Shown one piece after another: positions 349 through 62,265 of a stretch of DNA of 64,000 nucleotides. This DNA is from Candidatus Gallimonas merdae. GTDB taxonomy: Bacteria; Bacillota; Clostridia; Christensenellales; Borkfalkiaceae. The DNA is taken from the NCBI GenBank assembly GCA_904419525.1, contig CAJFRT010000007.1:3250-67249 (forward strand), read 5' to 3'. How positions within the stretch are numbered: the stretch's first letter is position 1; every line of letters starts with the position of its first letter. The translations under genes were made by a program, and so were the position numbers. The notes under the pieces are model-generated. The model did no database searches and was not told the origin of the DNA. It saw nothing but the letters and a program-made list of their open reading frames with translations.

Positions 349-377
349 CAAAGTATTATGTCAGACATAATACTCGT
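349..377. repeat. AT-rich palindrome family, copy 1 (CAAAGTATTATGTC-A-GACATAATACTCGT)
   Basis: Starts on the base after the ppiB stop, 63 nt upstream of the purB ATG. Arms pair 11 of 12 innermost positions. Flanks extend the symmetry (GTTTAAC / GTAAAAT). Confidence 0.85.
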
Positions 378-439
378 AAAATGACCTTGATTTGACTAAA
401 TTCTGAATTTTTGACGTGATAAAAGATAAGGATACCAAC

Positions 440-1876
440 ATGATTGACAATACGATTTATCAGAATCCCCTGAATACACGGTATGCGAGCCGCGAGATGC
501 AGGAAAATTTCGGTGACGAGAAGCGTTTCCGCCTCTGGAGAAAGCTTTGGATCGCGCTTGCCGAGTCGGAAATGGAACTCGGACTTCCCGTTTCACAGGC
601 ACAGATCGATGAAATGAAGGCGCATGCCGAAGACATCGACTATGAGCGTGCGGAAAAGTACGAGCGTGAGGTGCGCCATGACGTCATGGCGCATGTCAAG
701 ACGTTCGGCGACGCCGCTCCCTCGGCAGCACCCATCATTCACCTTGGGGCAACCAGCTGTTTCGTGGACTGCAATTCCGAGCTGATTATCATGAAGGACG
801 GGCTGGATATCATCCTTAAAAAGCTCGTCAACGTCATGGACAAGCTCAAAACGTTCGCCCTGAAATATAAGGATATGCCTACGCTCGGATTCACGCATCT
901 TCAGCCCGCGCAGCTGACAACCGTCGGCAAGCGCGCAACGCTGTGGCTGCAGGATCTCATGCTGGATTACGAAGATCTTGTCAATCTTATGGATCACTTC
1001 CGGCTGCGCGGCGTGAAGGGAACGACCGGAACGCAGGCAAGCTTTCTCGATCTCTTTGACGGGGACGAGGAAAAGGTCAGGGAGCTTGAAAGGCGTGTCG
1101 TTGCGAAAATGGGCTATGAAAAAGTCTATGGCGTGACGGGGCAGACCTATCCCCGGAAATTTGATTATAATGTCCTTTGTGTTCTCTCGCAGATCGCGCA
1201 GTCCGCTTATAAGTTCTCCAACGATATCCGGATCCTGCAGAACATGAAAGAGGTCGAAGAGCCCTTTGAAAAGTCGCAGATCGGTTCTTCGGCAATGGCC
1301 TACAAGCGCAATCCCATGCGCTGCGAACGCATGGGGTCGCTGGCGCGGTACATGCTCTCGCTTCCGATGAACAGTGCGGTCACTGCTTCCACGCAGTGGT
1401 TCGAGCGTACGCTCGACGATTCGGCCAACCGCAGGATCGTCAATGCACAGGCATTCCTTACAGTGGACGCCATTCTCAATATCTATATGAATGTCGCGGA
1501 CAATCTCGTCGTCTATGACAAGGTCATCGCAAAACATATCGCGGCGGAACTTCCCTTCATGGCGACGGAGAACATCATGATGGAGTGCGTCAAAGCAGGC
1601 GGAAACAGGCAGGAACTGCATGAAAAGATCCGCGTCCTTTCCATGGAAGCGGGCAAGAACGTCAAGCTCGAAGGGAAAGAGAATAATCTGATCGACCTGA
1701 TCAGAAAAGACGATGATTTCAAAGCCGTGCATGACCGTCTGGACGATATCCTCGATGCAAAGAAGTTTGTCGGGCGGGCGCCGCAGCAGACGGCGGAATT
1801 CATCGCGCGGGAGATCGATCCCATTCTTGCGCGCCATAAGGATCTGCTCGGGCAGAGCGGCGAGGTTCGTGTCTGA
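440..1876 (+). CDS. purB: Adenylosuccinate lyase
   Basis: ORF 416-1876. ATG at 440 gives MIDNTIYQNPLNTRYASREMQ, a typical PurB N-terminus. Fumarate-lyase signature GSSAMAYKRNP present. Confidence 0.93.
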   Translation: MIDNTIYQNPLNTRYASREMQENFGDEKRFRLWRKLWIALAESEMELGLPVSQAQIDEMKAHAEDIDYERAEKYEREVRHDVMAHVKTFGDAAPSAAPIIHLGATSCFVDCNSELIIMKDGLDIILKKLVNVMDKLKTFALKYKDMPTLGFTHLQPAQLTTVGKRATLWLQDLMLDYEDLVNLMDHFRLRGVKGTTGTQASFLDLFDGDEEKVRELERRVVAKMGYEKVYGVTGQTYPRKFDYNVLCVLSQIAQSAYKFSNDIRILQNMKEVEEPFEKSQIGSSAMAYKRNPMRCERMGSLARYMLSLPMNSAVTASTQWFERTLDDSANRRIVNAQAFLTVDAILNIYMNVADNLVVYDKVIAKHIAAELPFMATENIMMECVKAGGNRQELHEKIRVLSMEAGKNVKLEGKENNLIDLIRKDDDFKAVHDRLDDILDAKKFVGRAPQQTAEFIAREIDPILARHKDLLGQSGEVRV

Positions 1877-1976
1877 CAAGTCAATAAATGTCCATAATCT
1901 GACAACAATTTGCTTGTCTTTCCACATAGAATAGAGTATCCTATCCTTGAACAGAAAAGGTTGAAAGGAGGTCGAA

Positions 1977-2987
1977 ATGACAGTTCTTGTAACGGGCGGC
2001 GCGGGCTATATCGGTTCGCATACGGTGGTGGAATTGCTGACGGCGGGCTATGATGTAGTTGTTGTGGATAATCTCTGCAATGCGAATGAGGAAAGCCTGC
2101 GGCGCGTCAGGGAGATCACGGGGAAGGACCTTGTTTTTTATCCCTATGACGTGCGGGACAGAGAAAAGCTTGAGGAAATTTTCTCGGCGCACAAAATCGA
2201 TTGGGTCATTCACTTTGCCGGGCTGAAAGCAGTCGGCGAAAGCGTCCAAAAACCGATCGAATACTACGACAACAACCTGGTCTCCACGCTGGTGCTGCTT
2301 GAAACGATGAAAAAGTTCCAGGTCAGGAACTTCGTGTTCTCTTCTTCGGCGACGGTGTACGGCGAGCCCGAACGTCTGCCGCTCGACGAGGATTGCCGCC
2401 TTTCGACGACCAATCCTTACGGAACGACAAAACTGATGCAGGAGCAGATCCTCAAGGATCTGTATCATGCCGACCACGCCTGGAACATCGCTCTGCTGCG
2501 CTATTTCAACCCTGTCGGGGCGCATCCGTCCGGGCGGATCGGCGAAGATCCGAAGGGGATCCCCAACAACCTGATGCCGTATGTCGCGCAGGTCGCAAGC
2601 GGAAAACTTCAGAAGATCGGCGTGTTCGGCAATGATTATCCCACGCCGGACGGTACGGGCGTGCGGGATTATATCCATGTCGTCGATCTTGCGCGCGGGC
2701 ATGTCGCTGCCATCAAGTCGCTGAAAGAGCCCGGCGTTCACATTTATAATTTGGGGACGGGTAAGGGTTACAGCGTGCTCGATATGATCCATGCCTTTGA
2801 AAAAGCGTGCGGGAAGAAGCTTCCCTATGAGATCAAGCCCCGCCGTGCAGGCGATATCCCCGCGTGCTATGCTTCCAGCGCAAAAGCGGAAAAAGAGCTC
2901 GGCTGGAAAGCGCAGTATGACCTTGAGGATATGTGCCGGGATCAGTGGAACTGGCAGAAAAACAATCCGAACGGCTACGAATCCTGA
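1977..2987 (+). CDS. galE: UDP-glucose 4-epimerase
   Basis: [16 protein letters not shown] Rossmann start and YGTTK catalytic motif, 336 aa. RBS GAAAGGAGG 6 nt upstream. Confidence 0.93.
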
Positions 2988-2993
2988 AAAAAA

Positions 2994-3023
2994 CCGCCCG
3001 CACATGTTTCGCGGGCGGTTTTT
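2994..3023 (+). terminator. Rho-independent terminator after galE
   Basis: CCGCCCGC / GCGGGCGG 8 bp GC stem, 9 nt loop, followed by TTTTT. Confidence 0.85.
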
Positions 3024-3057
3024 ATAATCTGTGTCCGGATCGCGCAAACTTTCCGGT

Positions 3058-3306: not shown

Positions 3307-3321
3307 CCGGGAGGAAGAAAG

Positions 3322-3903: not shown

Positions 3904-3935
3904 CGGGGGCGTCTTGCAGGAACTGAATGAAAATG

Positions 3936-4054: not shown

Positions 4055-4074
4055 ATCTTCGCGACAGCTTTGTT

Positions 4075-4103: not shown

Positions 4104-4106
4104 GTT

Positions 4107-7884: not shown

Positions 7885-7971
7885 GCCGTCGTGGTGAAAC
7901 TGGCAGACGCAACAGACTCAAAATCTGTCGGGGGCAACCCCGTATCGGTTCGATTCCGATCGACGGCACCA
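7885..7971 (+). tRNA. tRNA-Leu(CAA) (type II, CCA encoded)
   Basis: GCCGTCG acceptor stem pairs with CGACGGC. Anticodon arm ACAGA-CTCAAAA-TCTGT. T arm ATCGGTTCGATTCCGAT. Ends in ACCA. Confidence 0.92.
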
Positions 7972-7976
7972 AAAAA

Positions 7977-8006
7977 CCGCAGGAGCTTTTGCTCCTGCGG
8001 TTTTTT
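7977..8006 (+). terminator. Rho-independent terminator after tRNA-Leu(CAA)
   Basis: CCGCAGGAGC-TTTT-GCTCCTGCGG 10 bp stem followed by TTTTTT. Confidence 0.9.
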
Positions 8007-8274
8007 GTGTGTTGCGGCGGAATCGAAAATTCAATCGATTCCGTGCGAGGCATCGGCGAAGAGCGGGGCATGCAAGTGACGGGAATAATTTCCGATGCCG
8101 AAGCTCCCGCACAGAGTGCGGGCTCGACGGCACCGCGGTTTTTTGTGTGTTGCGGCGGAATCGAAAATTCAATCGATTCCGTGCGAGGCATCGGCGAAGA
8201 GCGTGGCATGCAAGTGACGGGAATAATTTCCGATGCCGAAGCTCCCGCACAGAGTGCGGGCTCGACGGCACCGC
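7997..8274. repeat. Tandem direct repeat, 2 x 138 bp (one mismatch, G8066 vs T8204)
   Basis: Units 7997-8134 and 8135-8272. Each has hairpins GGAATCGA/TCGATTCC, GGCATCGG/CCGATGCC and CCCGCAC/GTGCGGG. Each ends in TCGACGGCACC, identical to the tRNA-Leu(CAA) 3' acceptor strand. Confidence 0.95.
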
Positions 8275-14179: not shown

Positions 14180-15393
14180 AAAGAACAGGCTTCATCAGAA
14201 GACGCCGCATTCCGTGCGCTCTTATCGCCGCGTTTGTCATACTGCTTCTGATCCTTGTCGGAGTGGCCGGCGGTCCGGTGGCTGAGGCGGATGCCTATAC
14301 GCCGGAAGAGGAGGCTGCGCTGGAAGAGCTGCAGGACAAGGTGGACGAACTCCTTGAGGCGCTTGATACGGAAGAACTGCAGGCCTATCTGGATTCTCTG
14401 ACGGAATTCAGTGGAATGGACATCAAAGAAACGCTTTCCTCCGTCATTACGGGCGATTTTGCGCTTGATTATTCTTCGCTGTGGCAGTCTGCACTTGCAC
14501 TTGTCTTTAATGAGGGAAGGGCAATGCTGCCTGCGTTTGCCGTTGTGCTCGCGGCCGCATTGCTTTGTGGGATCCTGAATTCTGCAAAAAATGGATTTTT
14601 ACAAAGTACTATGTCTGACATAATTAACTTTGTTACTTATATTGCGGTCGGTGCGGTGGTGCTTGCGGTACTGACGGGCGTATTGCAGACGGGATTTTCC
14701 GCAATGGGGAGCATGCAACGGCAGATGGAGATCGTCTATCCCGTTTTGCTCACATTGATGGCGGCAAGTGGAGGGTCGGTTTCGGCGGGGGTATTCCGTC
14801 CGGCGGTCGCGTTTCTCTCGAGCGCCGTGTGCGAAATGTTTACGGCCATTGTTTTGCCCGCTTCCGTCGTTGTGATCGTACTTGCGTTTGTCGGCAATCT
14901 CTCCCCGGATGTCCGGACGGAAAAGCTCGGCGACCTGTTCAAGAGTATCAATAAATGGCTGATCGGCCTTACGCTCGGCCTTCTGACGCTGTTTCTGACC
15001 GTGCAGGGGATCGCCTCTTCGCAATACGACGGGCTGTCTCTGCGCGCGATCAAGTATCTGGTATCGGGATCTGTTCCCATCGTCGGAGGATTTTTGTCGG
15101 GCGGGCTTGATCTCGTTCTGGCGGGAAGTGCCCTGATCAAAAATGCGGTCGGCTCCTTTGCGGTCTTTCTGCTTTTCGGCGCGCTGCTGCGTCCCGTGCT
15201 GCTGTTTGCGGCCTTCCAGCTGTTTCTGCGCCTTTGTGCGGCGGCGACGGAACCGGTTGGCGGAAAGGTCTCTGCCTTTCTCTCGCGTCTTGCGACGGAC
15301 AGCGGATTTTTTCTGGCCGGGCTTCTGTGCATCGCATTTTTATATTTCCTGACGCTCGTCCTGCTCGTCTGTTCTACGGGGGTGATCTTCTGA
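14176..15393 (+). CDS. spoIIIAE: Stage III sporulation protein AE
   Basis: 405 aa polytopic membrane protein with a signal/TM start. Expected position and size. Confidence 0.85.
   Translation: MKRTGFIRRRRIPCALIAAFVILLLILVGVAGGPVAEADAYTPEEEAALEELQDKVDELLEALDTEELQAYLDSLTEFSGMDIKETLSSVITGDFALDYSSLWQSALALVFNEGRAMLPAFAVVLAAALLCGILNSAKNGFLQSTMSDIINFVTYIAVGAVVLAVLTGVLQTGFSAMGSMQRQMEIVYPVLLTLMAASGGSVSAGVFRPAVAFLSSAVCEMFTAIVLPASVVVIVLAFVGNLSPDVRTEKLGDLFKSINKWLIGLTLGLLTLFLTVQGIASSQYDGLSLRAIKYLVSGSVPIVGGFLSGGLDLVLAGSALIKNAVGSFAVFLLFGALLRPVLLFAAFQLFLRLCAAATEPVGGKVSAFLSRLATDSGFFLAGLLCIAFLYFLTLVLLVCSTGVIF
14602..14632. repeat. AT-rich palindrome family, copy 2 (CAAAGTACTATGTC-T-GACATAATTAACTTTG), inside spoIIIAE
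   Basis: In frame with spoIIIAE and translated as QSTMSDIINF. AT-rich patch within a GC-rich CDS. Confidence 0.85.
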
Positions 15394-19324: not shown

Positions 19325-21034
19325 ATGGAAGATTTGGTACGCGGGGAGCTGAAAGAGGCTTCCCTTTCCCAACTCAAAGAGATCTGCGAAAGACTGCGCG
19401 GGGAAATATTCCGCACGGTCTCTGTGCGGGGCGGCCACCTTGCGTCCAATCTCGGCGTGGTGGAACTGACCGTTGCGCTTTACCGTACATTCAATTTCCC
19501 GACGGATAAGATCGTGTTCGACGTCGGGCATCAGTGTTATGCGCACAAACTGCTTTCCGGCCGTGCGCAGAAATTTTCCACGCTGCGCAGCCGCGGCGGG
19601 ATCTCCGGATTTCCGAAGCGCAGTGAGAGTCCCTTTGACTGCTATGAAACGGGGCATGCCGGCACGGCTGTTTCTGCCGCGCTCGGCATTGCGAAGGCGC
19701 GTGATCTGCAGGGGGAGTCGTTTGATGTGATCGCGCTGGTGGGCGACGGCTCCTTCAATAACGGCCTCATTTATGAAGCGCTCAACAGCCTGAAAATCCT
19801 GTCCACGCGCGTCCTCATCGTGCTGAACGACAACGGAATGTCGATTTCTCCCACGGTCGGGGGGACGCATGAAGTGCTTTCCGAAATCAAAGGGGGGCGC
19901 GCTCCGTCGGAAGATATTGCGCTGTTTGAGCGTTACGGATTGCGCTATATGGGCGTATATAACGGAAATGATCTGGAAGAACTGCTTCCCGCGCTTGAAG
20001 AGACCAAGGAAGCTTTGCGCGCGCAGAGCGTTCTGCTCCACGTGACAACGCGCAAAGGCCAGGGTTATGCTTTCTGCGAACGGGAACCGGAGCGCACACA
20101 CGGATTTTCTCCGAACGGGGCAGGAACGGAATATTCCGCGGCCCTTGGGGAAGAGCTCACTGCTATGGCGGGTGAAGATCCGCGTATCGTTGCGGTAACT
20201 GCGGCGATGACGGACGCCCTGGGGCTGAGGCCGTTTTTTCAGGCGTTTCCGGAGCGGGCGTTTGATGTCGGGATCTGCGAGGAGCACGCCTGCGTTCTGT
20301 CTGCGGCCCTTGCGGCCGGCGGCATGCGGCCGTACTATGCCATTTACTCGACGTTTTTGCAGCGTGCCTATGATGAGATCATTCACGATATCTGCGGACA
20401 GGGGCTTCCTGTGACGCTTTGTATCGATCGCGCCGGCGTGACCGGTGCGGACGGGGAGACGCATCAGGGCGTGTTCGATCTCTCATATCTTGCGCCGATT
20501 CCCAATCTCACGATCGCGGTACCGAAAAATATTGCGGAATTTCGCGCCATGCTCCGCATGAGCGCGTCGTATGGAAAGCCGCTTGCAATTCGTTACCCGC
20601 GTGAGGGAAAAGAAGGGGCTTCCAATGCCATCGAAATCGGGAAATTTGAAATTTTGCATAGTAGTACGTCAGACATAATCGTGTATGCTGCCGGGGAGCG
20701 CTGCATTGCTCTTGCGGAGCGTATTCTTGCTTTGGCCCAAAAAGAGGGAATGGATTTTACAGTCGTGAACGCAAGGTTCGTCAAACCCGTGGACAGTCAG
20801 ATGATTCTTTCCAGACGGGAAAAACAGGTGATCACATTGGAAGATAATGTCCTGACGGGCGGGCTCGGCGATGCGATCGCGCGGGTTCTGCGTGGTACGG
20901 AAAAAAATCTGCGCGCGTTCGGATATCCCGACATCTTTATTCCCCACGGCTCTGCGGCCGAACTTGCAGAGGAGTTCGGGCTCAACTCCGAAGAAATTCT
21001 GCGGTACATCAGGGAATGCCATGCGCGCGGATAG
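19325..21034 (+). CDS. dxs: 1-deoxy-D-xylulose-5-phosphate synthase
   Basis: GGHLASNLGVVELTVAL...DVGHQCYAHKLLSGR signature. 569 aa, somewhat shorter than the ~620 aa I expect for Dxs. Confidence 0.9.
   Translation: MEDLVRGELKEASLSQLKEICERLRGEIFRTVSVRGGHLASNLGVVELTVALYRTFNFPTDKIVFDVGHQCYAHKLLSGRAQKFSTLRSRGGISGFPKRSESPFDCYETGHAGTAVSAALGIAKARDLQGESFDVIALVGDGSFNNGLIYEALNSLKILSTRVLIVLNDNGMSISPTVGGTHEVLSEIKGGRAPSEDIALFERYGLRYMGVYNGNDLEELLPALEETKEALRAQSVLLHVTTRKGQGYAFCEREPERTHGFSPNGAGTEYSAALGEELTAMAGEDPRIVAVTAAMTDALGLRPFFQAFPERAFDVGICEEHACVLSAALAAGGMRPYYAIYSTFLQRAYDEIIHDICGQGLPVTLCIDRAGVTGADGETHQGVFDLSYLAPIPNLTIAVPKNIAEFRAMLRMSASYGKPLAIRYPREGKEGASNAIEIGKFEILHSSTSDIIVYAAGERCIALAERILALAQKEGMDFTVVNARFVKPVDSQMILSRREKQVITLEDNVLTGGLGDAIARVLRGTEKNLRAFGYPDIFIPHGSAAELAEEFGLNSEEILRYIRECHARG
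20657..20685. repeat. AT-rich palindrome family, copy 3 (CATAGTAGTACGTC-A-GACATAATCGTGTA), inside dxs
   Basis: In frame with dxs and translated as HSSTSDIIV. Matches the reverse complement of the 62237 copy at 23 of 24 nt. Confidence 0.85.
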
Positions 21035-27721: not shown

Positions 27722-27734
27722 AAAATACAATTTT

Positions 27735-27763
27735 GCAAAGTAATATGTATGACATAGTATATG
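27735..27763. repeat. AT-rich palindrome family, copy 4 (CAAAGTAATATGTA-T-GACATAGTATATGC)
   Basis: Starts 14 nt after the carboxypeptidase stop, 29 nt upstream of the lysA -35 box. Confidence 0.8.
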
Positions 27764-27791: not shown

Positions 27792-27821
27792 TTGACCGAA
27801 CCTGAAATGATATGGTATAAT
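27792..27821 (+). promoter_or_regulatory. Sigma-70-type promoter abutting the lysA start
   Basis: TTGACC, 18 nt spacer, TATAAT. The ATG lies 6 nt after the -10 and has no SD. Confidence 0.65.
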
Positions 27822-27827
27822 GTCCGT

Positions 27828-29156
27828 ATGTTCAATACAAGAGATACATTGAAAATCAATGCCAAAGGCCACCTGGAGATCGGCGGCGCGGACTGCGTGG
27901 ATCTGGCGGCAGAATTCGGTACGCCGCTTTATGTGTTCGATGAAGCATACATTCGCCAGATGATGCGGATCTACAGGGACACCATCGCGGAAGAATATGA
28001 CGGAAACGGACTTGTGCTGTATGCGTCCAAAGCATTTTCCTGTACGGCTGTCTATGCGATCGCCAGACAGGAAAATATCGGTGTGGACGTCGTGTCGGGC
28101 GGAGAACTCTATACGGCGATGCGGGCCGGGTTCCCCGCAGAGAAGATCACGATGCACGGAAACAACAAACTTCCGCACGAAATTGCGGAAGCGCTCGATT
28201 GCGGCGTCGGAATGATCGTTGTCGACGCCTATTCGGAAGTCGACCTGATCGAAGCGGAGGCGGAAAAGCGCGGCATCGTGCAGAATGTGCTGATCCGGAT
28301 CAATCCCGGCGTGGAGGCGCATACGCACGCCTATGTGCAGACGGCGACGCCCGATTCCAAATTCGGTTTTTCTGTTGCAAGCGGCGCCGCGGAAGCGATC
28401 ACAAAGTATGCGCTCTCAAAGCCGCATCTGAGACTGAGGGGCTATCACTGCCATATCGGTTCTCAGATTTTTGAAAAACAGTCTTTTGTGCTTGCCGTTG
28501 AAAAGAATCTTGCCTTTATGGCGGAGATGAAGAAAAATCTCGGATTTGAGGCGGATTCCCTCAATATGGGGGGCGGGTTCGGCATCTGGTACGCGGAGGG
28601 CGACGCCAAAATCGGCGTCGCAGGCTATGCGGACTACCTGCGGGCGCTTCTCTCAACGGTGAGAGAGGGCTGCAAAAAATATGGTCTGCGGCTGCCGTTT
28701 GTCTACCTTGAACCGGGGCGTTCGATCGTCGGTGAAGCGGGTATCACGCTCTACACCGTTGGGGCGATCCGCGAGATTCCCGGGATCCGCAAGTACGTGG
28801 CGGTGGACGGCGGCATGTTTGACAATCCGCGCTATGCCCTCTATCAGAGCAGATATACGGCGATCCTGGCCAACCGTGCCGCGGAGGAGCCGTCGGAGCT
28901 GGTCAGTATTGCCGGGAAATGCTGTGAAAGCGGCGATCTGATCGGAGTTGATTTCAATCTTCCGAAGGCCGCCACGGGGGATATTCTTGCCGTATTTTCA
29001 ACGGGCGCTTACAACTATTCGATGGCGTCCAATTATAACCGCAATCTGATTCCTCCGGCCGTGCTTGTGAACGGTGGAAAAGCGGAATACATCGTCATGC
29101 CGCAGACCTATGAAGATCTGGTGCGCAATGATGCTGTTCCGGAAAGACTGAAATGA
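27828..29156 (+). CDS. lysA: Diaminopimelate decarboxylase
   Basis: MFNTRDTLKINAKGHLEIGGADCVDLAAEFGTPLYVFDE. As I recall it, B. subtilis LysA has GHLEIGG at about the same offset, which supports this start. Confidence 0.92.
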   Translation: MFNTRDTLKINAKGHLEIGGADCVDLAAEFGTPLYVFDEAYIRQMMRIYRDTIAEEYDGNGLVLYASKAFSCTAVYAIARQENIGVDVVSGGELYTAMRAGFPAEKITMHGNNKLPHEIAEALDCGVGMIVVDAYSEVDLIEAEAEKRGIVQNVLIRINPGVEAHTHAYVQTATPDSKFGFSVASGAAEAITKYALSKPHLRLRGYHCHIGSQIFEKQSFVLAVEKNLAFMAEMKKNLGFEADSLNMGGGFGIWYAEGDAKIGVAGYADYLRALLSTVREGCKKYGLRLPFVYLEPGRSIVGEAGITLYTVGAIREIPGIRKYVAVDGGMFDNPRYALYQSRYTAILANRAAEEPSELVSIAGKCCESGDLIGVDFNLPKAATGDILAVFSTGAYNYSMASNYNRNLIPPAVLVNGGKAEYIVMPQTYEDLVRNDAVPERLK

Positions 29157-37394: not shown

Positions 37395-37598
37395 ATGGAA
37401 AAAAAGATGTGCGTTCTGGATGAAGAGAAGGAATGCGACGGATGCCTTGAATGCGAAGTGTGTGACCTTGATCCGAATAAGATCTGCGACAACTGCGGGA
37501 AATGTCTGGATATCAAGGAATATGCGGCGATCCGTATCGACAAATTGTATACGGATCCCGATGAATATGAGCGGGAAGAGAAAAAGAGGACGCATTGA
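37395..37598 (+). CDS. Cysteine-rich acidic miniprotein (67 aa, 8 Cys)
   Basis: RBS GCAGGAG. Cys pattern C-x7-CxxCxxCxxC-x7-CxxCxxC followed by an acidic tail. Family not recognised. Confidence 0.55.
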   Translation: MEKKMCVLDEEKECDGCLECEVCDLDPNKICDNCGKCLDIKEYAAIRIDKLYTDPDEYEREEKKRTH

Positions 37599-37733
37599 AC
37601 GCAATTTCGATAGTTTTCCCACAATAAAAAAGTATAGCGCATTATACCTTGTGAGCAAGACAGTGCGCTTATTTTTTTGATTATTTATTCTGTAATCACG
37701 ACAAAGAAAACGGCAATTTAACGGAGAGAATAT

Positions 37734-38177
37734 ATGACAATAAAAGAAATCAGGTTTTCGGAACGCATCGCAGTTCAGTTGATTACGCTTTCAAAAGAAT
37801 GGGAACAAGAAAATTCTTGTTATGGTTATCATAGAAATAATTCGGATGATTTCAAAGATAAGCGGATCTTTGTTGCAACGGACGGAGAGTTGATTTGCGG
37901 ATATTTATTCGGTCATAATTCAACAACTGAGAAAGACACCTCGATTTATAAAGCGGGAACCGAATATTTTGAAATTGACGAGTTGTACGTTAAACCGCAA
38001 TATCGAAATTGCGGAATCGGCCAAAAACTTTTTAGATACGCTGAAAAGGCGGTTTCACCCGACATGAACCTTATTATGCTTATTACAGCCACTAAAAATT
38101 TTCGTGCGATCCTGCATTTCTATATAGATGAGCTCGGCATGGACTTTTGGAGTGCAAGCCTTTTTAAAAAAATATGA
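37734..38177 (+). CDS. GNAT family N-acetyltransferase
   Basis: ELYVKPQYRNCGIGQKLFRYAE acetyl-CoA-binding motif. RBS GGAGAG. Markedly lower GC than its neighbours. Confidence 0.8.
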   Translation: MTIKEIRFSERIAVQLITLSKEWEQENSCYGYHRNNSDDFKDKRIFVATDGELICGYLFGHNSTTEKDTSIYKAGTEYFEIDELYVKPQYRNCGIGQKLFRYAEKAVSPDMNLIMLITATKNFRAILHFYIDELGMDFWSASLFKKI

Positions 38178-38200
38178 TAAATTTCTATTTATTATGCAAT

Positions 38201-38240
38201 AAAACGAGCAAAAAATCTGAAAAATTTTTGCTCGTTTTTC
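38201..38240. terminator. Bidirectional terminator at the convergence of the GNAT gene (+) and hflX (-)
   Basis: ACGAGCAAAAA ... TTTTTGCTCGT 11 bp stem, followed by TTTT. Confidence 0.8.
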
Positions 38241-38275
38241 ATCTTTATTGGAATTGCCGTTGAAGTGTTCCTTTT

Positions 38276-39484
38276 TTATTTCAGATAGGGACGGAATTTT
38301 GCGGCATGTTCTGCGGGGATAACTGCCAGAATGTGAGAGCCGTCGTCCGTGTAAGATACTTCGCGTTCCGTCACGAGCGATCGCAGCGCAGCATATTTCG
38401 ACGCATTCGCATAGGGAACGAACAGTTCTGCTTTGATAAACCGCCGTTCCAAGGATTCAAAGATTCTTTGCTTCAATAATACAAGCCCGCGCCCGTATTT
38501 TGCTGAAATACAAATCCAATCTTTGGGGAAATGCGTGTTTTCCTGCGCCTGATCGCATTTGTTCATGACAACGAGATAGGGAGATGAAAAATCCATGCTG
38601 CGCAATGTTTTGAGGGTTGTCTCAAGCTGAACTTCGTAGTCCCCGCCTGCATCGCAGACGATGAGGGCAAGATCGCACTGCAGGGCGCTTTCCAGCGTCG
38701 AGCGGAATGCCTCGATGAGATGATGCGGGAGATCGCGCAGGAATCCGACGGTGTCCGTAAGCAGGAAATCCATGCCGTCTATTTCAAGTCGGCGCGTTGT
38801 CGGATCCAGCGTTGCAAAAAGGGCGTCCTGTACAAAGACCTCGGCGCCCGTAAGGGCATTCAGAAGCGTTGACTTTCCCGTATTGGTATAGCCGACGAGC
38901 GCAACGGTGCGAACGCCGTCTTTTTTTCTGCGGTCAGTCTGGAGACCTCTTCTTTGCCGGGTTTTGGCAAGTTTTTCCTCCAGGGAATGTATGCGCGTAC
39001 GGATATGTCTGCGGTCCGTTTCCAGCTGTGTTTCTCCGGGCCCGCGCGTTCCGATGCCGCCTCCGAGACGGGAAAGGGCGCCTCCCTTGCCTTTCAGCCG
39101 CGGATAAAGATATCGCAGCTGTGCGAGTTCCACCTGCAGTTTTCCTTCGCTGCTCTCTGCCCGCAGGGCAAAGATATCGAGAATGAGCGTCGTCCGATCA
39201 ATGACCTTTTTCCCTTCGAGCGCCTCGGAAAGATTGACGGTCTGTGCAGGGGAGAGCTCCCCGTTGAATAAGATCGTCAGATCGAGTCCCGCCAGCCGTT
39301 CCCGCAGTTCTGCAATTTTACCCTCGCCGAGATAGGTCGCAGGATTGATCTCACGGATCTTCGCGTACATCGTGCCGGCGTAAGAAGCGCCGGCGCTCTC
39401 GATCAGAGCAACTGCTTCTGCGTGCAGCGCGTCCGCCGACTGATCTGTGACAGGCTGAATGATATAGACATTTTCCGATGTCAT
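38276..39484 (-). CDS. hflX: GTPase HflX
   Basis: HflX N-domain, then G motifs [21 protein letters not shown] and NKCD. Confidence 0.92.
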
Positions 39485-40551
39485 GAATCTTCCTCCGAAT
39501 GGTGGAGTTTGACGGCGTCTGCGACCGAACGACGGTGATCCTCCGTGATGGCGGCATAGTGTTTCCGTGTCGTGTTGACGTCCCTGTGACCGAGCACATC
39601 GGCCACAATATAGATGTCTCCGGTCTGACGATACAGCGCCGTGCCATATGTGGAGCGCAGTTTATGGGGGGTGATCTTTTTGAGAGGGGAAACGATTTTT
39701 GCGTATTTTTTTACGAGATTTTCCACAGCCCGCACGGAAATGCGCCTGTACTGAAGGGACAGAAAGAGGGCGTGTTCGTCGGGGGGGATACGCGGATCGT
39801 TTTCTTTCTCTGCGAGGTATGCGGCAAGTGCATCGCCGACTTCTTCGGAAAAATAGAGGATTGCTTTGTTGCCGCCTTTCCGCGTCACAATAAAGGAATT
39901 GTTGGAGAAATCGATACTTTCGTTATTCAACCCGACAAGCTCGGAGATACGGATCCCTGTTCCAAGGAAAAGGGTGAGGATCGCACTGTCGCGGATCTTT
40001 GTTTTTTCATGATAGCCGCTCGCGTGCGGAGAGAGGCCGTCTCCGTATTCTGCGGTATCCAGAAGGGAAGTGACTTCGTTGTTTTCCAGTCGGATAATTT
40101 CTTTTTCGTGCAGCTTGGGAGTAGTCACTTTTGCCGTTTGATTGACTTCGATCAAGCCCTTATTGAAGAAATACTTGAACATGGAGCGCACAGAGGAGAG
40201 CTTGCGCGCCTTGGCGCGTTCGTCGCAGGAAAGGCGCTTGTCTTTGAATCTGTAGTTGGAAAGGTAACTCAAAAAAATCTCGATATCCGTGTCTGTCACG
40301 CTCTCAAGGTCTTCCAGGGTGAGTTCCGCGACCGCTTTCCCGCGGAATTTTCTGTGGATCAGAAAATCAAAGAAAATACGCAGGTCATACACATAGTTCA
40401 GGCGCGTGAGAACACTTGTGCGCATTTCAATTCCGCGCAGAAAATCCTCGCAGAAAGGAGGGAGTTCTTCAAGGAGCTGGTCGATCTTGTCAAGGTTTTT
40501 CAGGTTGCGTTCCTGATAATAATCGGAATTGTTTTTACTGATTTTCGGCAT
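39481..40551 (-). CDS. Tyrosine recombinase, long XerS/XerH-sized Xer-like protein (356 aa)
   Basis: C-terminal [12 protein letters not shown]...[13 protein letters not shown] (R-H-R-Y catalytic set). N-terminal core-binding domain. ATGA overlap with hflX. Start at MPKISK, set by the promoter position. Confidence 0.85.
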
Positions 40552-40557
40552 ACCGCT

Positions 40558-40586
40558 ATTATAGCACATGAAAGAGGATTCGTCAA
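40558..40586 (-). promoter_or_regulatory. Sigma-70-type promoter abutting the recombinase start
   Basis: Minus strand TTGACG, 17 nt spacer, TATAAT. The ATG lies 6 nt after the -10 and has no SD. Confidence 0.65.
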
Positions 40587-40687: not shown

Positions 40688-40721
40688 AACTATTCGCAAA
40701 ACACAGGTTTTGCGAATAGTT
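40688..40721. other. Perfect 34 bp palindrome, candidate dif-like recombination site (or strong hairpin)
   Basis: AACTATTCGCAAAA-CACAGG-TTTTGCGAATAGTT: 14 bp arms around a 6 bp centre (or a 15 bp stem with a 4 nt loop). About 100 bp upstream of the recombinase promoter. Confidence 0.45.
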
Positions 40722-40865
40722 ATGGGTAAAATCGGGCTTGATAAGGCAATTCCTTTAAATTTTGGGCGTTTTTGCCGAGCTTCTGCCGAAATTACTGGAT
40801 TTGTAAAATTCATCTTGACAGAGATTTTACAGAGAATCTAAAATTTGAGTTGTATAATATCAATG

Positions 40866-40896
40866 AAAAAAAACGGCATTTTATTGCCGTTTTTTT
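40866..40896 (-). terminator. Terminator after the GH13 gene (bidirectional shape)
   Basis: A7-ACGGCA-TTTTAT-TGCCGT-T6. Confidence 0.75.
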
Positions 40897-40925
40897 CTGA
40901 AACAATTATAAACAGACATTGATAC

Positions 40926-40954
40926 TGCAATACTATGTCAGACATACTATTTGA
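40926..40954. repeat. AT-rich palindrome family, copy 5 (TGCAATACTATGTC-A-GACATACTATTTGA)
   Basis: Overlaps the GH13 stop codon (40947-40949). A partial extra half-site CAGACATTGATAC lies about 26 nt upstream. Confidence 0.8.
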
Positions 40955-55735: not shown

Positions 55736-55761
55736 ATTCCGATACAAATCAAATGCAACAT

Positions 55762-55793
55762 AAAAAGGCGCGTCCATTGGGACGCGCCTTTTT
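55762..55793. terminator. Bidirectional terminator between spoVG (+) and csp (-)
   Basis: AAAAA-GGCGCGTCC-ATTG-GGACGCGCC-TTTTT. Confidence 0.9.
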
Positions 55794-55803
55794 ATGCTTG
55801 CTT

Positions 55804-56016
55804 TCAGGATACCGGCACTACGTTTACTGCACGGAGTTTGCCGCTGTCTTTGGGATCGGGCTCGGTCTCAAATGTGACTTTCTGCCCTTCCTTCAACGTG
55901 CGGAATCCTTCCGTCTGAATTGCCGAGAAATGGACGAACACATCATCGCCGCCTTCGTCGTTGGCGATGAATCCGTAACCTTTTCCGTCGTTGAACCATT
56001 TAACAGTTCCGTTCAC
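55804..56016 (-). CDS. cspA: Cold shock protein (CSD)
   Basis: [15 protein letters not shown] (RNP1) and VFVHFSAI (RNP2). GTG start with AGGAGG upstream. Confidence 0.92.
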
Positions 56017-56103
56017 TTATATTACCTCCTATCGGCGCGCAGTGTAAACGTACGCACACACGCACCGATGCGTCACGAGTCATGCTTATCCACGCCGATA
56101 TCA

Positions 56104-56132
56104 ATTATACTCCTCATTTAAGAGCTTGTCAA
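56104..56132 (-). promoter_or_regulatory. Sigma-70-type promoter of csp with a ~85 nt 5' UTR
   Basis: Minus strand TTGACA, 17 nt spacer, TATAAT. A long leader is typical of csp genes. Confidence 0.65.
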
Positions 56133-58047: not shown

Positions 58048-60363
58048 TTATTTGTTCTCGTCGTTTCCGAGAAGATCTGCGATGGACGCGCCGCTGAAGC
58101 CGCCTTCGCTCCATTCTCTGTATTCGGCTTCGTCCGCATAGTCGCTTGCCGTGCGGCGATTGCCCTTATTGCGCTGACGAGGACGTCTTTCGCGCTCTTC
58201 CTCGCCGTCTCTTTCGCGGCTGGCGCGGTCGTCCCAAGGACGGGGCTGAAGCGCCTTGATGGAAAGCGTGATCTTGTGCGCTTCGGGATCAAAAGCAAGA
58301 ACTTTTGCATCGATCTCCTGACCGATCGTCAGAGCGGAAGTGGGATTTTCCAGCCATTCATGCGTGATCTGGGAAACATGGACAAGGCCGTCGATACCCT
58401 TTTCCAGTTCCACAAAAGCACCGAACGGAACGATGCGGACAACTTTGCCGTGGACAATGTCACCCTCTGCATAGCGCTCTGCAGCGGTGTCCCAAGGACG
58501 GGGCTGAAGCTGTTTATAGCCGATAGAAACTTTCTTGTTTTCGCGGTCGATCTTCAGGACTTTGAATTCGTAGCGCTTGCCGATCTCAAGAACATCGGTC
58601 ACTTCCTTGACGCCGGTCCAGGAAAGATCGGAGATATGGGCAAGGCAATCGAAACCGTTGACGGAAACGAAAGCGCCGAAAGAAGTGACTCTTTCCACCT
58701 TTCCTTCCACGATGTCGCCGACCTGAATGGAATCAAAGAATGCAGCTTCGCGCTCGGCCTTTGCTTCTTCCCTCGCCTTCTTTTCTGCTTCAAGGATCAC
58801 GCGCTGGGAAGCGATGATCTCCTTTCTGCGCTCGCGGCGGATCTCAAGCATTTTCAGGCGGAGCTTCTTGCCCACCATCTTGTCGAGCTCTTTGACGTAT
58901 CCGGAACGGATCTCGCGTGCAGGCACAAATACGGAATAGGTGCCGAGCTCGGCGGTCAGGCCGCCCTTATTGAAGCCAGTGCAAACAACGGAGAATTCTT
59001 TGCCTTCCTCGATATCTTTGAGGAGCGACTCTTCTTCCTTGACCTTTCTGACCTGTTTTTCAGAGAGTTTGACGGCGGGCTTCGTCTCGATCACCATGAC
59101 ATCGATATTTTCACCCACTTTCGCCGCATATGCTTCGCGGCTGAACTCTTCGCAGTCAAGCTCAGATTTATCGATCAGGATATCCGCTTTGCCGGAACCG
59201 GAAACATAGACGCCGTCGTCCGTAGCGGAAACAAGCTTCACGGTGAGAAGCTGTCCTCTCTTGTAATGCGAGCCCTTCTCCATTTCCGCGATCACTGCGT
59301 CCATGGCGGACTTTTCTTCAGCGGGAGCTGTCTGTGCAGGCGCCTCTTCCGACTGCTCGGGAGCGGCTTTTGCCACCTCTCCGGAAACATCGGCACTGTT
59401 TGCCGCTTCTGCGGCAGGAGCTGCCTGCGTTTCCGCTTCGGGAGCAGCTTCGGCGGGGATCGCCGCTGCCGGTTCCTCTGCGACGGGAGTTGCCGTCTCT
59501 TCGGAGACCTGCGTCTCCACCTGTACTTCCGCGTTGTTTTCTGCCATCTTTTTGAGAACCTCCGAGGTCTGCCAATCGGGAGTGCTTGCTCCCGCTACAA
59601 TGCCGACCCTTTTACAAAATTTAACTTTTTCATATTGAAAATCGTCCGCATGATTCAGGCGGTATACCTGATTGCAATACTGCGACGCGATTTCCGCAAG
59701 CTTGTTGGTATTGCTGCTGTTCAGCCCGCCGATCACAAGAACGGCGTCCGATTCGCGCGCAAGGCGCGCAGCATCTTTTTGCCTGCTTACAGTAGTATAG
59801 CAAATTGTCTTAAAAATCTCAACTGTTTTTGGACGTACTTTTTGAATATTTTCCGCGATTTTTGAAAATCTTTGCTCAGAAAAGGTGGTTTGCGAGAGCA
59901 GAACGACGTTTTTTCCCTCCAAAACAGAGAAATCCTCGTCCTCAGAGGCAAATACATGCACGTCCCCCCTGCCCCAGCCGACGAGGCCGATGACTTCTGG
60001 GTGCTCTGCATGTCCGGCTATCGCCACCGTTTTTCCGGAGGAGGAAGCTTCTGCCACGATGCGCTGGGCATTGCGCACGAACCTGCACGTACAGTCCACG
60101 ATGCGGATCCCGCGTCGGGAGCATTCTTCATAGGTCTTTTTCCCGACGCCGTGAGAACGGATCAGGAGCGTCGCTCCGTCGGGGACTTCTGAAAGCTTTT
60201 CTGCTGTCGGGATTCCGCGGGCACGGATCCGGCCGGTCACGTCTTCGTTGTGAATGAGCTCGCCGAGGACATAAGTGTTTTCTGCAGAGACGGTCATCGC
60301 CGTCTCTACCGCTCTGCGGACGCCGGTACAGAATCCGCAGTGCGCGGCAACAACGACTTTCAT
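58048..60363 (-). CDS. ispH: Fusion protein: HMBPP reductase (IspH/LytB) + ribosomal protein S1 repeats
   Basis: N-terminal MKVVVAAHCGFCTGVRRAV IspH domain, then an ~80 aa Ala/Glu/Pro linker, then four S1 motifs (e.g. GDIVEGKVERVTSFGAFV). This fusion is known in Clostridia. Confidence 0.9.
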   Translation of the reverse strand: MKVVVAAHCGFCTGVRRAVETAMTVSAENTYVLGELIHNEDVTGRIRARGIPTAEKLSEVPDGATLLIRSHGVGKKTYEECSRRGIRIVDCTCRFVRNAQRIVAEASSSGKTVAIAGHAEHPEVIGLVGWGRGDVHVFASEDEDFSVLEGKNVVLLSQTTFSEQRFSKIAENIQKVRPKTVEIFKTICYTTVSRQKDAARLARESDAVLVIGGLNSSNTNKLAEIASQYCNQVYRLNHADDFQYEKVKFCKRVGIVAGASTPDWQTSEVLKKMAENNAEVQVETQVSEETATPVAEEPAAAIPAEAAPEAETQAAPAAEAANSADVSGEVAKAAPEQSEEAPAQTAPAEEKSAMDAVIAEMEKGSHYKRGQLLTVKLVSATDDGVYVSGSGKADILIDKSELDCEEFSREAYAAKVGENIDVMVIETKPAVKLSEKQVRKVKEEESLLKDIEEGKEFSVVCTGFNKGGLTAELGTYSVFVPAREIRSGYVKELDKMVGKKLRLKMLEIRRERRKEIIASQRVILEAEKKAREEAKAEREAAFFDSIQVGDIVEGKVERVTSFGAFVSVNGFDCLAHISDLSWTGVKEVTDVLEIGKRYEFKVLKIDRENKKVSIGYKQLQPRPWDTAAERYAEGDIVHGKVVRIVPFGAFVELEKGIDGLVHVSQITHEWLENPTSALTIGQEIDAKVLAFDPEAHKITLSIKALQPRPWDDRASRERDGEEERERRPRQRNKGNRRTASDYADEAEYREWSEGGFSGASIADLLGNDENK

Positions 60364-61151
60364 TTTCTCTTTGCCCTCTTTTCAGACCGCCGGGCACGGA
60401 ACTGCGAACGGAGATCGTAAAGCAGACCCGCAAGCTTTTCGTCGGCCTGTGCATATTCTTCCGACGACAGTTTCTTTCCGTAATATTCGGTGAATTCAAA
60501 GGGCTCTCCGATGACGACGTGCGTCATGCGGAATACCTTCGGCCGGTTGCAGATGACGATCGGTATGATCGGGGTGCGGGTCTTGATCGCAAGCATGGCA
60601 GCCCCGCCATGAAAGGGCAAAAATTCTTCATCGGAAGTTTTGTTCCGTGTTCCCTCCGGGAAAAGCGAAAGTTTTTCTCCGTTTTTCAGGACTTTCATTG
60701 AGTCCATGATCGTCCTTACGTCGGATCCGTCGCGCATTGCGCCGATGACTCCGAGCCGACGTGCGACATAGCCGAGGACCGGCGCGTGGAGAATGGGATC
60801 TTTGGCCATAAAATGGATCCCTTCCCATGTGGTGTGCGCCGGGTAGAAGACGTCAAAAATGCAATAGTGGTTGCTGACGTAAATACAGGCTCCGGGGCCC
60901 ACTTTTTTCTTTCCGTGCAGTTTGAACGGGAAGATCAGCCAATGGATCGGATAGAAGATCACCCGAAGGACGTTCATGAGGTGCATGACATGGCGTCCTT
61001 TTTTGTTGGCAGGAAAGAGCAGACGGCGCTGTTTTTCCTGCTTTTCCGCCCTCTTTTTTTGGTTTCTTTCCTTTTTTTCAAGTTTTTTCAGACGTTTTTC
61101 TTCCCGGCGTCGCTCTTTTTCCGTCGTCTGTGCGGCAGCTTCCTCGCTCAT
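60360..61151 (-). CDS. plsC: 1-acyl-sn-glycerol-3-phosphate acyltransferase with Lys/Glu-rich N-terminal extension
   Basis: NHYCIFD (NHxxxxD) and FPEGTR motifs. ATGA overlaps on both sides support the long form. Confidence 0.85.
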   Translation of the reverse strand: MSEEAAAQTTEKERRREEKRLKKLEKKERNQKKRAEKQEKQRRLLFPANKKGRHVMHLMNVLRVIFYPIHWLIFPFKLHGKKKVGPGACIYVSNHYCIFDVFYPAHTTWEGIHFMAKDPILHAPVLGYVARRLGVIGAMRDGSDVRTIMDSMKVLKNGEKLSLFPEGTRNKTSDEEFLPFHGGAAMLAIKTRTPIIPIVICNRPKVFRMTHVVIGEPFEFTEYYGKKLSSEEYAQADEKLAGLLYDLRSQFRARRSEKRAKRK

Positions 61152-62158
61152 CAGATTTTCTCCTGCATTTTCCGTTTGATGGTTTCCAGAACCTGATCGA
61201 TCGTCATATCGGATGTGTCGATCAGAATGGCGTCCTCTGCCTTTTTCAACGGCGCGACCTCGCGGGTGGAATCCTGTTTGTCCCGCGCGGCGATCTCGTT
61301 TTTGAGGGTTTCAAAATCTACCGATTCACCTTTGGCAGTCAGCTCTTCATAACGCCTTTGGGCACGGACTTCCGGGGTGGCGGTCAGGAAAAATTTGAAG
61401 TCCGCATCGGGAAGAACAAACGTACCGATGTCGCGGCCGTCCAGCACGCAGGACATTTTTCCGGCGATTTCACGCTGTTTTTCCACCATTTTCATGCGCA
61501 CGCTCGCGTGACGCGAGATCGTGGACGCCGCCATCGTGACTTCAGACGAACGCAGGCAGGAGCTTACGTCTTCGTTTCCGAGCATCGTATGCTGCACGCC
61601 GTCGCGGTATATGACGGACAGCTTCAGGCCGCGCATCAGATCGCATACCTGAACTTCGTCTTCCACATCGATGCCCGCACGGATCGCCGCAAGCGCACAG
61701 GCACGGTACATCGCGCCCGTGTCAAGATACAGGATATGATAGTCATTGGCAAGAAGTTTCGCGATCGTGGATTTACCGCTGCCTGCCGGCCCGTCGATTG
61801 CAATATTATATTTCTGGGCGAGATCTTTGCGCAGGATCCGCGCACCCCGCAGATAGACATGGTGCGGCGTGATATTTTTTTCCACAAAGAGCATCACGCG
61901 GATGCAGAGGGCAAGTCCGCCCTCTATTTCAGGTTCCTGGGCCGAAAACAGCGAACAGCTTGCAAATCCCGCTTCGCGCGCCGCTTTGGCAGGATAAAAG
62001 GAATGAATGTCCGATGTGCTTGAAAATACAATGCTGAGCACCTCGTCCCGCTTGAGTGCGTTCCTGCTTTCGATCTGCTCCAAAAGTTCTGCAACTGCGG
62101 CACGGATCTCTTCCGCGCTGTCGGTTGCGATCGTTGTTGCCCCGCGAATTACTGTCAT
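61151..62158 (-). CDS. cmk: Fusion protein: AroH-type chorismate mutase domain + cytidylate kinase
   Basis: N-terminal MTVIRGATT...FYPAKAARE...CIRVML..HHVYL matches B. subtilis AroH as I recall it. Followed by IAIDGPAGSGKST cytidylate kinase. RBS GGGAGA before ATG 62158. Confidence 0.85.
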   Translation of the reverse strand: MTVIRGATTIATDSAEEIRAAVAELLEQIESRNALKRDEVLSIVFSSTSDIHSFYPAKAAREAGFASCSLFSAQEPEIEGGLALCIRVMLFVEKNITPHHVYLRGARILRKDLAQKYNIAIDGPAGSGKSTIAKLLANDYHILYLDTGAMYRACALAAIRAGIDVEDEVQVCDLMRGLKLSVIYRDGVQHTMLGNEDVSSCLRSSEVTMAASTISRHASVRMKMVEKQREIAGKMSCVLDGRDIGTFVLPDADFKFFLTATPEVRAQRRYEELTAKGESVDFETLKNEIAARDKQDSTREVAPLKKAEDAILIDTSDMTIDQVLETIKRKMQEKI

Positions 62159-62236
62159 AAGGATCTCCCGTTTATCTTCTGCTGTATTTCTATCATATTG
62201 ATTTTGTCGGAAAATGTCAAACAATCCTGAAAAATA

Positions 62237-62265
62237 TTCCATATTATGTCTGACATACTACTATG
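62237..62265. repeat. AT-rich palindrome family, copy 6 (reverse complement CATAGTAGTATGTC-A-GACATAATATGGAA)
   Basis: Lies 13 nt past the stop of the FAD oxidoreductase gene and 79 nt upstream of the aroH-cmk ATG. Confidence 0.85.

Follow-up and report, generated by a model that had tools for sequence, protein, structure and literature searches.

In enterobacteria, the dispersed palindromes known as repetitive extragenic palindromic (REP) sequences and bacterial interspersed mosaic elements (BIMEs) are bound by gyrase and IHF and are linked to RAYT transposases. The sites of chromosome organisers (parS for ParB, NBS for Noc, matS for MatP, ram for RacA and SBS for SlmA) are near-perfect palindromes of 13–16 bp with tens of copies per genome; they are conserved across related genera and tolerated inside genes, and RacA and Noc join the DNA to the membrane or the pole. 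The matS consensus, GTGACRNYGTCAC, is confined to the Ter macrodomain. In the Firmicutes, we know of nothing comparable to REP/BIME, matS or SlmA sites. In Escherichia coli the gyrase motif spans 130 bp, with 36 bp at the centre and, on either side, 47 bp in which composition is phased at 10 bp; the regions downstream of transcription units are enriched in gyrase, and BIME-2 elements, which are intergenic, are strong gyrase sites independent of transcription (PMC6379681). Here we analyse a 64,000-nucleotide stretch (referred to as the window) of Candidatus Gallimonas merdae, a spore-forming Clostridium-type organism (52.6% G+C in the window), in which an initial annotation had singled out six dispersed copies of an AT-rich imperfect palindrome. 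This palindrome, its counterparts in other species and the protein that may bind it are the subject of this report.

The reading that we favour, with somewhat less than even confidence, is that a clade-specific dimeric protein is predicted to dock at the palindromes, most probably a membrane-anchored member of the PadR family, and that at these sites the DNA would form an oriented, bent or wrapped particle that acts as a boundary at the ends of transcription units. All six palindromes lie where the initial annotation had placed them: TATGTCWGACATA with at most one mismatch has exactly six matches in the window (357, 14610, 20665, 27744, 40934 and 62245) and none in 100 dinucleotide-preserving shuffles, no copy with exactly two mismatches is present in the window, and the 11-mer ATGTCWGACAT occurs six times against 0.54 expected. 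The family was recovered independently by a repeat search of the window (D3, I2 and I3), in which similarity extends to the left of the palindrome, and the 20.6 kb copy matches the reverse complement of the 62.2 kb copy at 86% over 37 nt. The exact 13-mer had been counted three times plus once with a central T; on the + strand there are in fact two with a central A (357 and 40934) and two with a central T (14610 and 62245), and the cores at 20665 (TACGTC..., TACGTCAGACATA) and 27744 (TATGTATGACATA) carry one mismatch each.

The extension into the left flank that had been proposed is real and longer than claimed, reading TTTT(G/A)CA(A/T)AGTA(C). Alignment of 124 clearly oriented sites gives an asymmetric consensus, TTTTGCAWAGTAC followed by TATGTCWGACATA and then AT, in which the block GCAWAGTAC extends the 13-bp palindrome on one side only; the asymmetry is also seen in the extra sites that were picked by the core alone. 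Neighbouring sites are mostly 21–23, 32–34 or 43–44 bp apart (p=4e-5 versus chance, with some orthologous duplicates included), and because of these spacings clustered sites would sit on the same face of the helix. The densest cluster found, in two species, holds five sites in 120 bp between the terminator of a short-chain dehydrogenase/reductase (SDR) gene and the operon of dgt (dGTPase), dnaG and sigA (L016:7397-7517 and L092:5606-5726, where L-numbers denote loci from other species).

The feature that most constrains the mechanism, and that the initial annotation missed, is a series of A/T tracts phased at 10.4 bp over ~150–170 bp. Once orthologous duplicates and clustered sites had been removed, leaving 95–102 independent sites, the A/T content on either side of the core was found to rise and fall every ~10.4 bp, between ~0.3 and 0.9. 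The A/T peaks are locked to the dyad at ~8, 17, 27, 37, 48 and 58 bp on each side, symmetric to ~±60 bp, and on the flank-bearing (upstream) side they reach ~−100. The top spectral peak, at 10.5 bp, has an amplitude of 0.067 upstream and 0.037 downstream, whereas random-shift controls average 0.009 and do not exceed 0.031. Each context taken by itself (coding, convergent, tandem or divergent) shows the phasing; it is equally strong when only coding flank positions are taken, where it exceeds the period-3 signal, and it is absent around 689 site-free stop codons and around other AT-rich palindromes. The tracts are of the AnTn type, and such phased tracts are the predicted signature of duplex DNA that is bent or wrapped over ~150–170 bp. 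Because they recur every ~10.4 bp in register with the dyad, the DNA probably bends or wraps around a bound complex, and an explanation at the level of RNA cannot account for them.

A scan of 185,579 species genomes with AGTANTATGTCWGACATA matched at least 120 stretches, and most of the loci used here were collected by an exact 18-nt pattern. Among the matches listed, nearly all are metagenome-assembled genomes of uncultured Clostridia, namely Borkfalkia (which is placed in Christensenellales), Gallimonas, Neoclostridium, Christensenellaceae and Pumilibacteraceae, with sites on many contigs per genome. As a control, 512 kb around the dxs genes of other clades held only three matches at up to one mismatch. 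Fifteen exact matches were found in IMG/VR; this was judged to be chance level, and a link to phages was dropped. The density is ~1 site per 14–49 kb, and sites are more frequent in the window (6 per 64 kb) than at the loci of other species (~1 per 27–49 kb); metagenome contigs with identical proteins, which extend the window by 10 kb past each end, hold no further sites. Full-text literature searches found nothing relevant for the exact motif sequence or on the clade, and no Rfam family was found at the sites, either at the gathering threshold or by E-value.

The initial annotation had suggested looking at relatives, and there the motif is conserved throughout the clade at orthologous positions, including inside genes. 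Orthologous intragenic sites occur in dxs (eight species), spoIIIAE (seven) and miaA (nine), and also in glmS and hisA. In all eight species the site within dxs encodes ...K-F-E-x-L-H-S-x-M-S-D-I...; the Dxs proteins of the species sharing the site are 66–74% identical to that of the window, the intragenic site is absent from Dxs relatives at 58% identity or less, and dxs relatives sought in metagenomes without the motif yielded few close ones. Recurrent orthologous places between genes include the region past the FAD-oxidoreductase stop codon, the region upstream of purB and the spacer between the GH13 and tyrosine recombinase genes beside hflX. Sites retrieved without the motif are conserved as well, at 4 of 4 PadR gene loci (upstream of the gene) and in 3 of 3 PDH–YgjP spacers. 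Orthologous positions that persist across genera are unlike the behaviour of mobile REP elements.

In total, 121 of 161 sites are intergenic and 40 are intragenic (two of the six in the window). A site is present in 21.5% of the intergenic regions between convergent genes, in 9.9% of tandem ones and in 6.0% of divergent ones (convergent versus divergent, p=0.009), which corresponds to ~0.10 sites per gene 3′ end in tandem and convergent regions alike. This bias towards 3′ ends is the opposite of what is expected for promoters or operators. Many cores begin 0–25 nt past a stop codon, and the distance to the upstream stop is conserved between species whereas the distance to the next start codon varies; of the positional patterns that had been proposed, proximity to stop codons thus holds, while association with promoters and proximity to a terminus do not. 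In tandem contexts 56 sites are co-oriented with both flanking genes and 17 are anti-oriented (p=5e-6), with the flank-bearing side facing the upstream gene, and among coding copies 34 are co-oriented and three anti-oriented. Intrinsic terminators were found at 21% of 3′ ends with a site and 22% of those without one; as the two frequencies are equal, a role as a terminator substitute was rejected, and terminators, where present, are distinct hairpins before or after the site.

The candidate binder comes from one recurrent location. In 13 of 13 species a site lies 12–24 bp upstream of the −35 element of the promoter, TTGACA-17-(TATAAT or TACAAT), of a gene for a PadR-family protein. At the nine such loci that derive from the motif search, all with a perfect TTGACA-17-TATAAT promoter, the gap measures 12–14 bp in seven species and is longer by about one turn in the other two, so that the dyad falls at −54/−55 and −65 respectively; as the shift from −55 to −65 equals one turn, the helical face would be retained. 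Four further PadR homologues, fetched by protein similarity alone (43–48% identical to the query), all have a site at the same place, with two mismatches in the core at the most divergent of the four loci. The protein consists of an acidic N-terminal tail, a full LmrR-like PadR module of the winged-helix dimer type (E=2e-21 against LmrR and E=1e-26 against 1xma), an acidic linker or coiled coil of ~425 residues with a net charge of −40, and four C-terminal hydrophobic segments. Homologues that otherwise share no more than 43–57% identity have an almost unchanged DNA-binding module, as would be expected of a protein that reads many fixed sites, and the core, T-ATGT-CWG-ACAT-A, contains the inverted ATGT/ACAT half-sites of PadR operators. 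For these reasons of sequence, the membrane-anchored PadR-family protein is most likely the leading candidate binder. The reference gene is at L035:4224-6362 (− strand), with homologues in L001, L056, L073, L075, L085, L091, L114, L120 and L121-L124; the family is widespread in the clade (1172 matches at E≤1e-10) and unnamed in databases, and a conserved membrane-protein gene without a Pfam match is divergent from the PadR gene. Small 1xma-like PadR relatives, which stand alone at ~110 residues, were also considered and are uninformative on the motif.

The gene contexts given by the initial annotation for the intergenic copies (ppiB/purB, carboxypeptidase/lysA, the GH13 stop overlap and FAD oxidoreductase/aroH-cmk) are all borne out in the window. 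Copy 1 (344–371, +; core 357–369) reads TTTAACAAAGTAT followed by TATGTCAGACATA and AT in its own orientation; it begins within the ppiB stop codon, purB starts 70 nt downstream, and an orthologous site is present in L049. Copy 2 (14597–14624, +; core 14610–14622) lies inside spoIIIAE, where it reads F-L-Q-S-T-M-S-D-I-I in frame, and L022, L030, L043, L050 and L090 have a site at the equivalent place within the gene. Copy 3 (20652–20679, +; core 20665–20677, TACGTCAGACATA, with one mismatch) is in the 3′ third of dxs and reads L-H-S-S-T-S-D-I-I; seven other species (L002, L013, L017, L018, L022, L076 and L093) have a site there too, and no promoter was found downstream of it. Copy 4 (27731–27758, +; core 27744–27756, TATGTATGACATA, with one mismatch) is located between the D-Ala-D-Ala carboxypeptidase gene and lysA, with 13 nt from the stop codon to the palindrome and 22 nt to the core. 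Its dyad is at ~−78 of a strong σA-type lysA promoter (27792–27821, +; TTGACC-18-TATAAT with a TG). This promoter ends 6 nt ahead of an in-frame ATG at 27828 (region 27792–27830), so that lysA may be translated from a leaderless mRNA.

Copy 5 (40926–40954; core 40934–40946) overlaps the stop codon of the GH13 gene on the minus strand and has a deviant flank and an ambiguous orientation. A separate intrinsic terminator follows it (40866–40897, −), so the palindrome itself is not the terminator. Copy 6 (62243–62270, −; core 62245–62257) is reversed and lies between the FAD-oxidoreductase gene and aroH-cmk, 12 nt (palindrome) and 20 nt (core) past the FAD-oxidoreductase stop; orthologous sites are found 19–51 nt past this stop in L048, L086 and L097, and the dyad is at ~−66 of a strong σA-type aroH-cmk promoter (62192–62220, −; TTGACA-17-TATGAT). 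No terminator was called at copies 1, 4 and 6, where a G+C-rich stem with a U-tract was not found.

The surroundings of copy 5 are themselves conserved, with the order GH13, site, ~340 nt, tyrosine recombinase and hflX recurring in L077, L088, L089 and L117. The tyrosine recombinase gene (Phage_integrase with a SAM-like N-terminal domain; 39481–40569, −, in the window) adjoins hflX in five species and has its own promoter, TTGACG-17-TATAAT; a small terminator-bounded unit (~40690–40860) separates it from copy 5. In three other species (L089, L095 and L117) hflX and a gene for a small Cys-rich protein converge on a site that fits between their stop codons with margins of only 4–23 nt. At the same spot in the window (37395–39484) a low-G+C, acetyltransferase-like gene (37734–38177) is inserted and the site is gone, a degenerate palindrome, AAGTATAGCGCATTATAC (~37630), being its sole remnant. 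In another species the thrS leader (L012:2690-2960) shows the hallmarks of a T-box (AGAGA and GGTGGAACCGCG) with no Rfam call at the gathering threshold, and in at least three species the palindrome lies 14 nt from the start codon, with the T-box-like thrS leader on one side and the Shine-Dalgarno sequence on the other. Elsewhere in the window, a perfect tandem duplication with a 138-nt unit (7997–8272; 99% identical) adjoins a tRNA gene (7885–7968), and a match to the cspA thermoregulator family that stays below threshold (55761–56128, −; 64.6 bits, gathering score 78, E=5e-14) overlaps both the gene and the 5′ leader of a cold-shock-domain protein, beside spoVG.

Taken together, we infer that the sites are bound by a protein, and a working model can be proposed in which each copy would be the core of a composite, DNA-level element of ~150–170 bp. 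The 13-bp palindrome and GCAWAGTAC would form a putative high-affinity docking site for a sequence-specific dimer, conserved through the Christensenellales-like clade, and the DNA would be bent or wrapped around the docked complex via the dyad-registered AnTn tracts. The resulting particles would be fixed just past stop codons, pointing with transcription, with a few at conserved intragenic positions, and each might act as an architectural or topological boundary, by tethering DNA, by trapping or managing the supercoils generated by transcription, or by insulating neighbouring units. Through its four membrane segments the PadR-family protein would connect these loci to the membrane, and downstream promoters in helical register (−55, −66 and −78) would be affected only secondarily.

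Several points weigh against this model. Some sites are in helical register upstream of strong promoters, at −55, −66 and −78, and five sites precede dgt-dnaG-sigA, so that the element may also have a regulatory role. The consensus of PadR-family operators is ATGT-N8-ACAT (PMC4517056). This arrangement occurs in no register of the element, in which the spacer of the core is 3 bp (N3), and since the half-sites are the same and the spacing differs, membership of the canonical PadR operators fails on one defining feature. The link between the PadR-family protein and the sites is circumstantial, as its gene may be one conserved target among many. Furthermore, the acidic linker (net charge −40) cannot explain the wrapped flanks, for which another factor or intrinsic curvature would be needed; a coiled coil lying along the DNA was rejected because the linker is strongly acidic. 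The degree of core conservation is overstated because of the exact 18-nt pattern by which most loci were ascertained, and the context statistics come from our own approximate codon-model gene calls.

The likeliest rival is a regulon under a global transcription factor, followed in turn by gyrase sites, RNA elements, a class of promoters and, last, Ter/matS sites. It is unlikely, by our estimate, that the sites are operators of a large housekeeping and biosynthetic regulon that act on the downstream promoter, with bent DNA aiding contact with RNA polymerase. Such operators would fit the dyads at −55, −66 and −78 of the strong σA promoters of the PadR gene, aroH-cmk and lysA, which are one helical turn apart, the five sites upstream of dgt-dnaG-sigA, the sites that abut the ribosome-binding sites of thrS, folA and a phosphoribosyltransferase gene, and a set of downstream genes that includes purB, lysA, carA, metK, metH, folA and glmM. 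However, promoter-less convergent regions are richest in sites and two-promoter divergent regions poorest, a quarter of the sites lie inside genes and have no promoter after them, spacing is conserved to the upstream stop and variable to the downstream start, and phasing is as strong in coding and convergent contexts. Pfam annotation of the downstream genes reveals no theme beyond housekeeping, and the site is far sharper and richer in information than a global regulator requires. The central TCWGA and the 7-1-7 layout resemble the CodY box, TCWGA being all that the box and the core have in common. A tblastn search over 945 kb with a CodY helix-turn-helix segment gave no CodY match, which carries no weight either way. 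An operator of a dimeric regulator had been among the initial proposals; its dimeric binder survives in the docking sites favoured here, whilst the classical promoter operator does not, as the sites track gene 3′ ends. Improbable, too, are hard-wired strong gyrase sites of the BIME-2/REP or Mu kind, in which the flanks would wrap the GyrA C-terminal domains and positive supercoils would be removed at gene ends. The span is comparable, the ~130-bp extent with flanks phased at 10 bp is found here, the association is with 3′ ends, and phasing extends further on one side than on the other, a feature also reported for the Mu site. Against this, a strictly conserved odd palindrome with its dyad on a base pair appears ill-suited to a 4-bp staggered cut, known gyrase centres are degenerate rather than 13 invariant bases, and both the GCAWAGTAC block and the conservation of a site at the PadR promoter suggest a dedicated protein that recognises a specific sequence.

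The other explanations are much less probable. A REP-like hairpin, transcribed in a 3′ untranslated or intercistronic region to stabilise or process mRNA, possibly with an RNA-binding protein, had also been proposed, and the 3′-end placement on which it drew is real: sites lie right past stop codons, co-oriented with transcription, and copy 5 lies between a stop codon and a terminator. We nevertheless regard it as very unlikely, since the hairpins are weak (−5 to −9 kcal/mol; z-scores −1.2 to +1.8, with five of six no better than shuffles), the palindromes of copies 3 and 6 fall outside the minimum-energy fold, and the fold of copy 4, at −16.7 kcal/mol, uses other, unrelated sequence. Changes in a single arm (TATGCC, TACGTC and CGCATA) are never compensated, intragenic sites are conserved, some sites lie beyond intrinsic terminators or between convergent ones, helically phased flanks are a property of duplex DNA, and neither Rfam nor the terminator frequencies set the sites apart. 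Slightly less credit still can be given to a special promoter class, TTTGCA-17-TAATAN with UP-like upstream A-tracts and a conserved spacer. Copies 6 (TTTACA-17-TAATAT) and 1 (TTAACA-18-AATACT) are promoter-like, at 9 of 12 positions, the element is co-oriented with genes, and the upstream A/T peaks fall at UP-element positions; yet the final T of the would-be −10 is unconserved, copies 4 and 6 have strong canonical promoters further downstream, and at thrS, folA and others the predicted start would be inside or beyond the ribosome-binding site. Convergent regions are, moreover, richer in sites than divergent ones, and the phasing extends downstream as well, symmetrically about the dyad. Promoters of the sporulation factors σE, σF, σG and σK were set aside because their spacings, compared by eye with the consensus sequences, do not fit. 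Just as little probability attaches to sites for replication termination or a Ter macrodomain (RTP/Ter- or matS-like), oriented by fork movement, which the initial annotation had linked to a putative terminus in the window. The 13-bp palindrome is matS-like in its high information content, site orientation agrees with the local GC skew in 81 of 94 cases, and sites are denser in the window than at the loci of other species. Skew and gene direction are nonetheless confounded, with discordant cases at 11 versus 6 (not significant), only CTATGT is common with the Ter consensus, and sites occur on many contigs per genome and are missing from the 10 kb past either end of the window. GC skew at third codon positions (GC3), taken on the + strand, is +0.055 for the left + genes, +0.23 for the left − genes and +0.16 for the right − genes; the + strand is thus G-rich on both sides of the strand switch and leading across the window, so no terminus lies there. 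Copy 6, the reversed orientation of which had been read, with reservations, as a replication signal, follows the direction of its genes. Windowed GC skew of the stretch is ambiguous as to a terminus, and a dif-like pattern gave chance-level matches only, in the spoVG upstream region. From 38276 to 64000 almost all genes are on the minus strand, with a coding-strand GC3 skew of −0.16, as for lagging-strand genes, so that the switch at ~38 kb is more suggestive of a large head-on block, or of an inversion, than of a terminus.

If docking sites are nonetheless the right description, a bolder form of this reading, which we consider unlikely, is a so far undescribed chromatin particle, oriented and positioned by sequence, with ~150 bp wrapped and nucleated by the membrane-anchored PadR-family protein, that would serve as both a membrane tether and a topological or transcriptional boundary, in effect a hard-wired insulator, at transcription-unit ends and a few fixed places inside genes across a clostridial order. 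Even coding sequences of essential genes nearby would be constrained by what such an insulator requires, and the Firmicutes would have a sequence-defined system of architectural landmarks with a concrete candidate protein. The phased arms point to selection on DNA shape over ~150 bp that overrides codon choice inside conserved enzymes, and 3′-end placement together with transcription orientation opens two questions, one on the insulation of transcription units and the other on the handling of the supercoils that transcription generates. The motif is, in addition, a marker of, and an entry point into, the biology of the abundant, uncultured Christensenellales of the gut.

Compared with known systems, the sites are like REP/BIME in being dispersed imperfect palindromes of ~30–40 bp, mainly at 3′ intergenic positions and sometimes clustered, with a link to DNA topology (PMC6379681). 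In contrast to REP/BIME, the palindromes are AT-rich and their hairpin is weak, they are not strictly extragenic, they are conserved across genera at orthologous positions including inside genes, and they combine a far lower density with an asymmetric flank and long phased A/T arms. The gyrase motif has a similar extent of ~130 bp, a central block with flanks phased at 10 bp and a location downstream of transcription units; its centres, however, are degenerate and of even symmetry, whereas the present element has a conserved odd palindrome, a specific flank and a site at the PadR promoter. From the organiser sites the element differs in its sequence (for matS, a core other than GTGACRNYGTCAC), in its strong 3′-end bias and transcription orientation, and in its candidate binder, a PadR integral membrane protein rather than a ParB, MerR, TetR or ribbon-helix-helix (RHH) protein; to our knowledge, phased wrapping arms have not been described for parS, NBS, matS, ram or SBS.

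Operators of LmrR, PadR and LadR share with it the ATGT/ACAT half-sites, an LmrR-like module in the candidate protein and an autoregulatory-looking arrangement at the regulator's own gene, but here the spacing is N3 and not N8, there are tens of dispersed sites instead of one or two operators, the site is at −55/−65 and not over the promoter, and the candidate has a long acidic linker and four membrane segments. The Ter sites of Bacillus subtilis likewise have an asymmetric core with an auxiliary half, are polar and are bound by a winged-helix dimer, RTP, and they share the hexamer CTATGT; the differences are that no terminus is present here, that copies are many more and that the consensus KMACTAANWNNWCTATGTACYAAATNTTC is unmatched beyond CTATGT (PMC3317982). 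RTP is, in addition, confined to close relatives of B. subtilis (PMC3317982). DNA uptake sequences (DUS/USS) occur at ~1 copy per kb, compared with ~1 per 14–49 kb here. By analogy, the closest functional counterparts would be BIME-2 and other strong gyrase sites and the organiser sites parS, NBS, matS and ram, and the flanks built to bend, with their placement mostly just past gene ends, suggest a so far undescribed protein–DNA structure with a part in organising the chromosome more than a gene switch of the ordinary kind.

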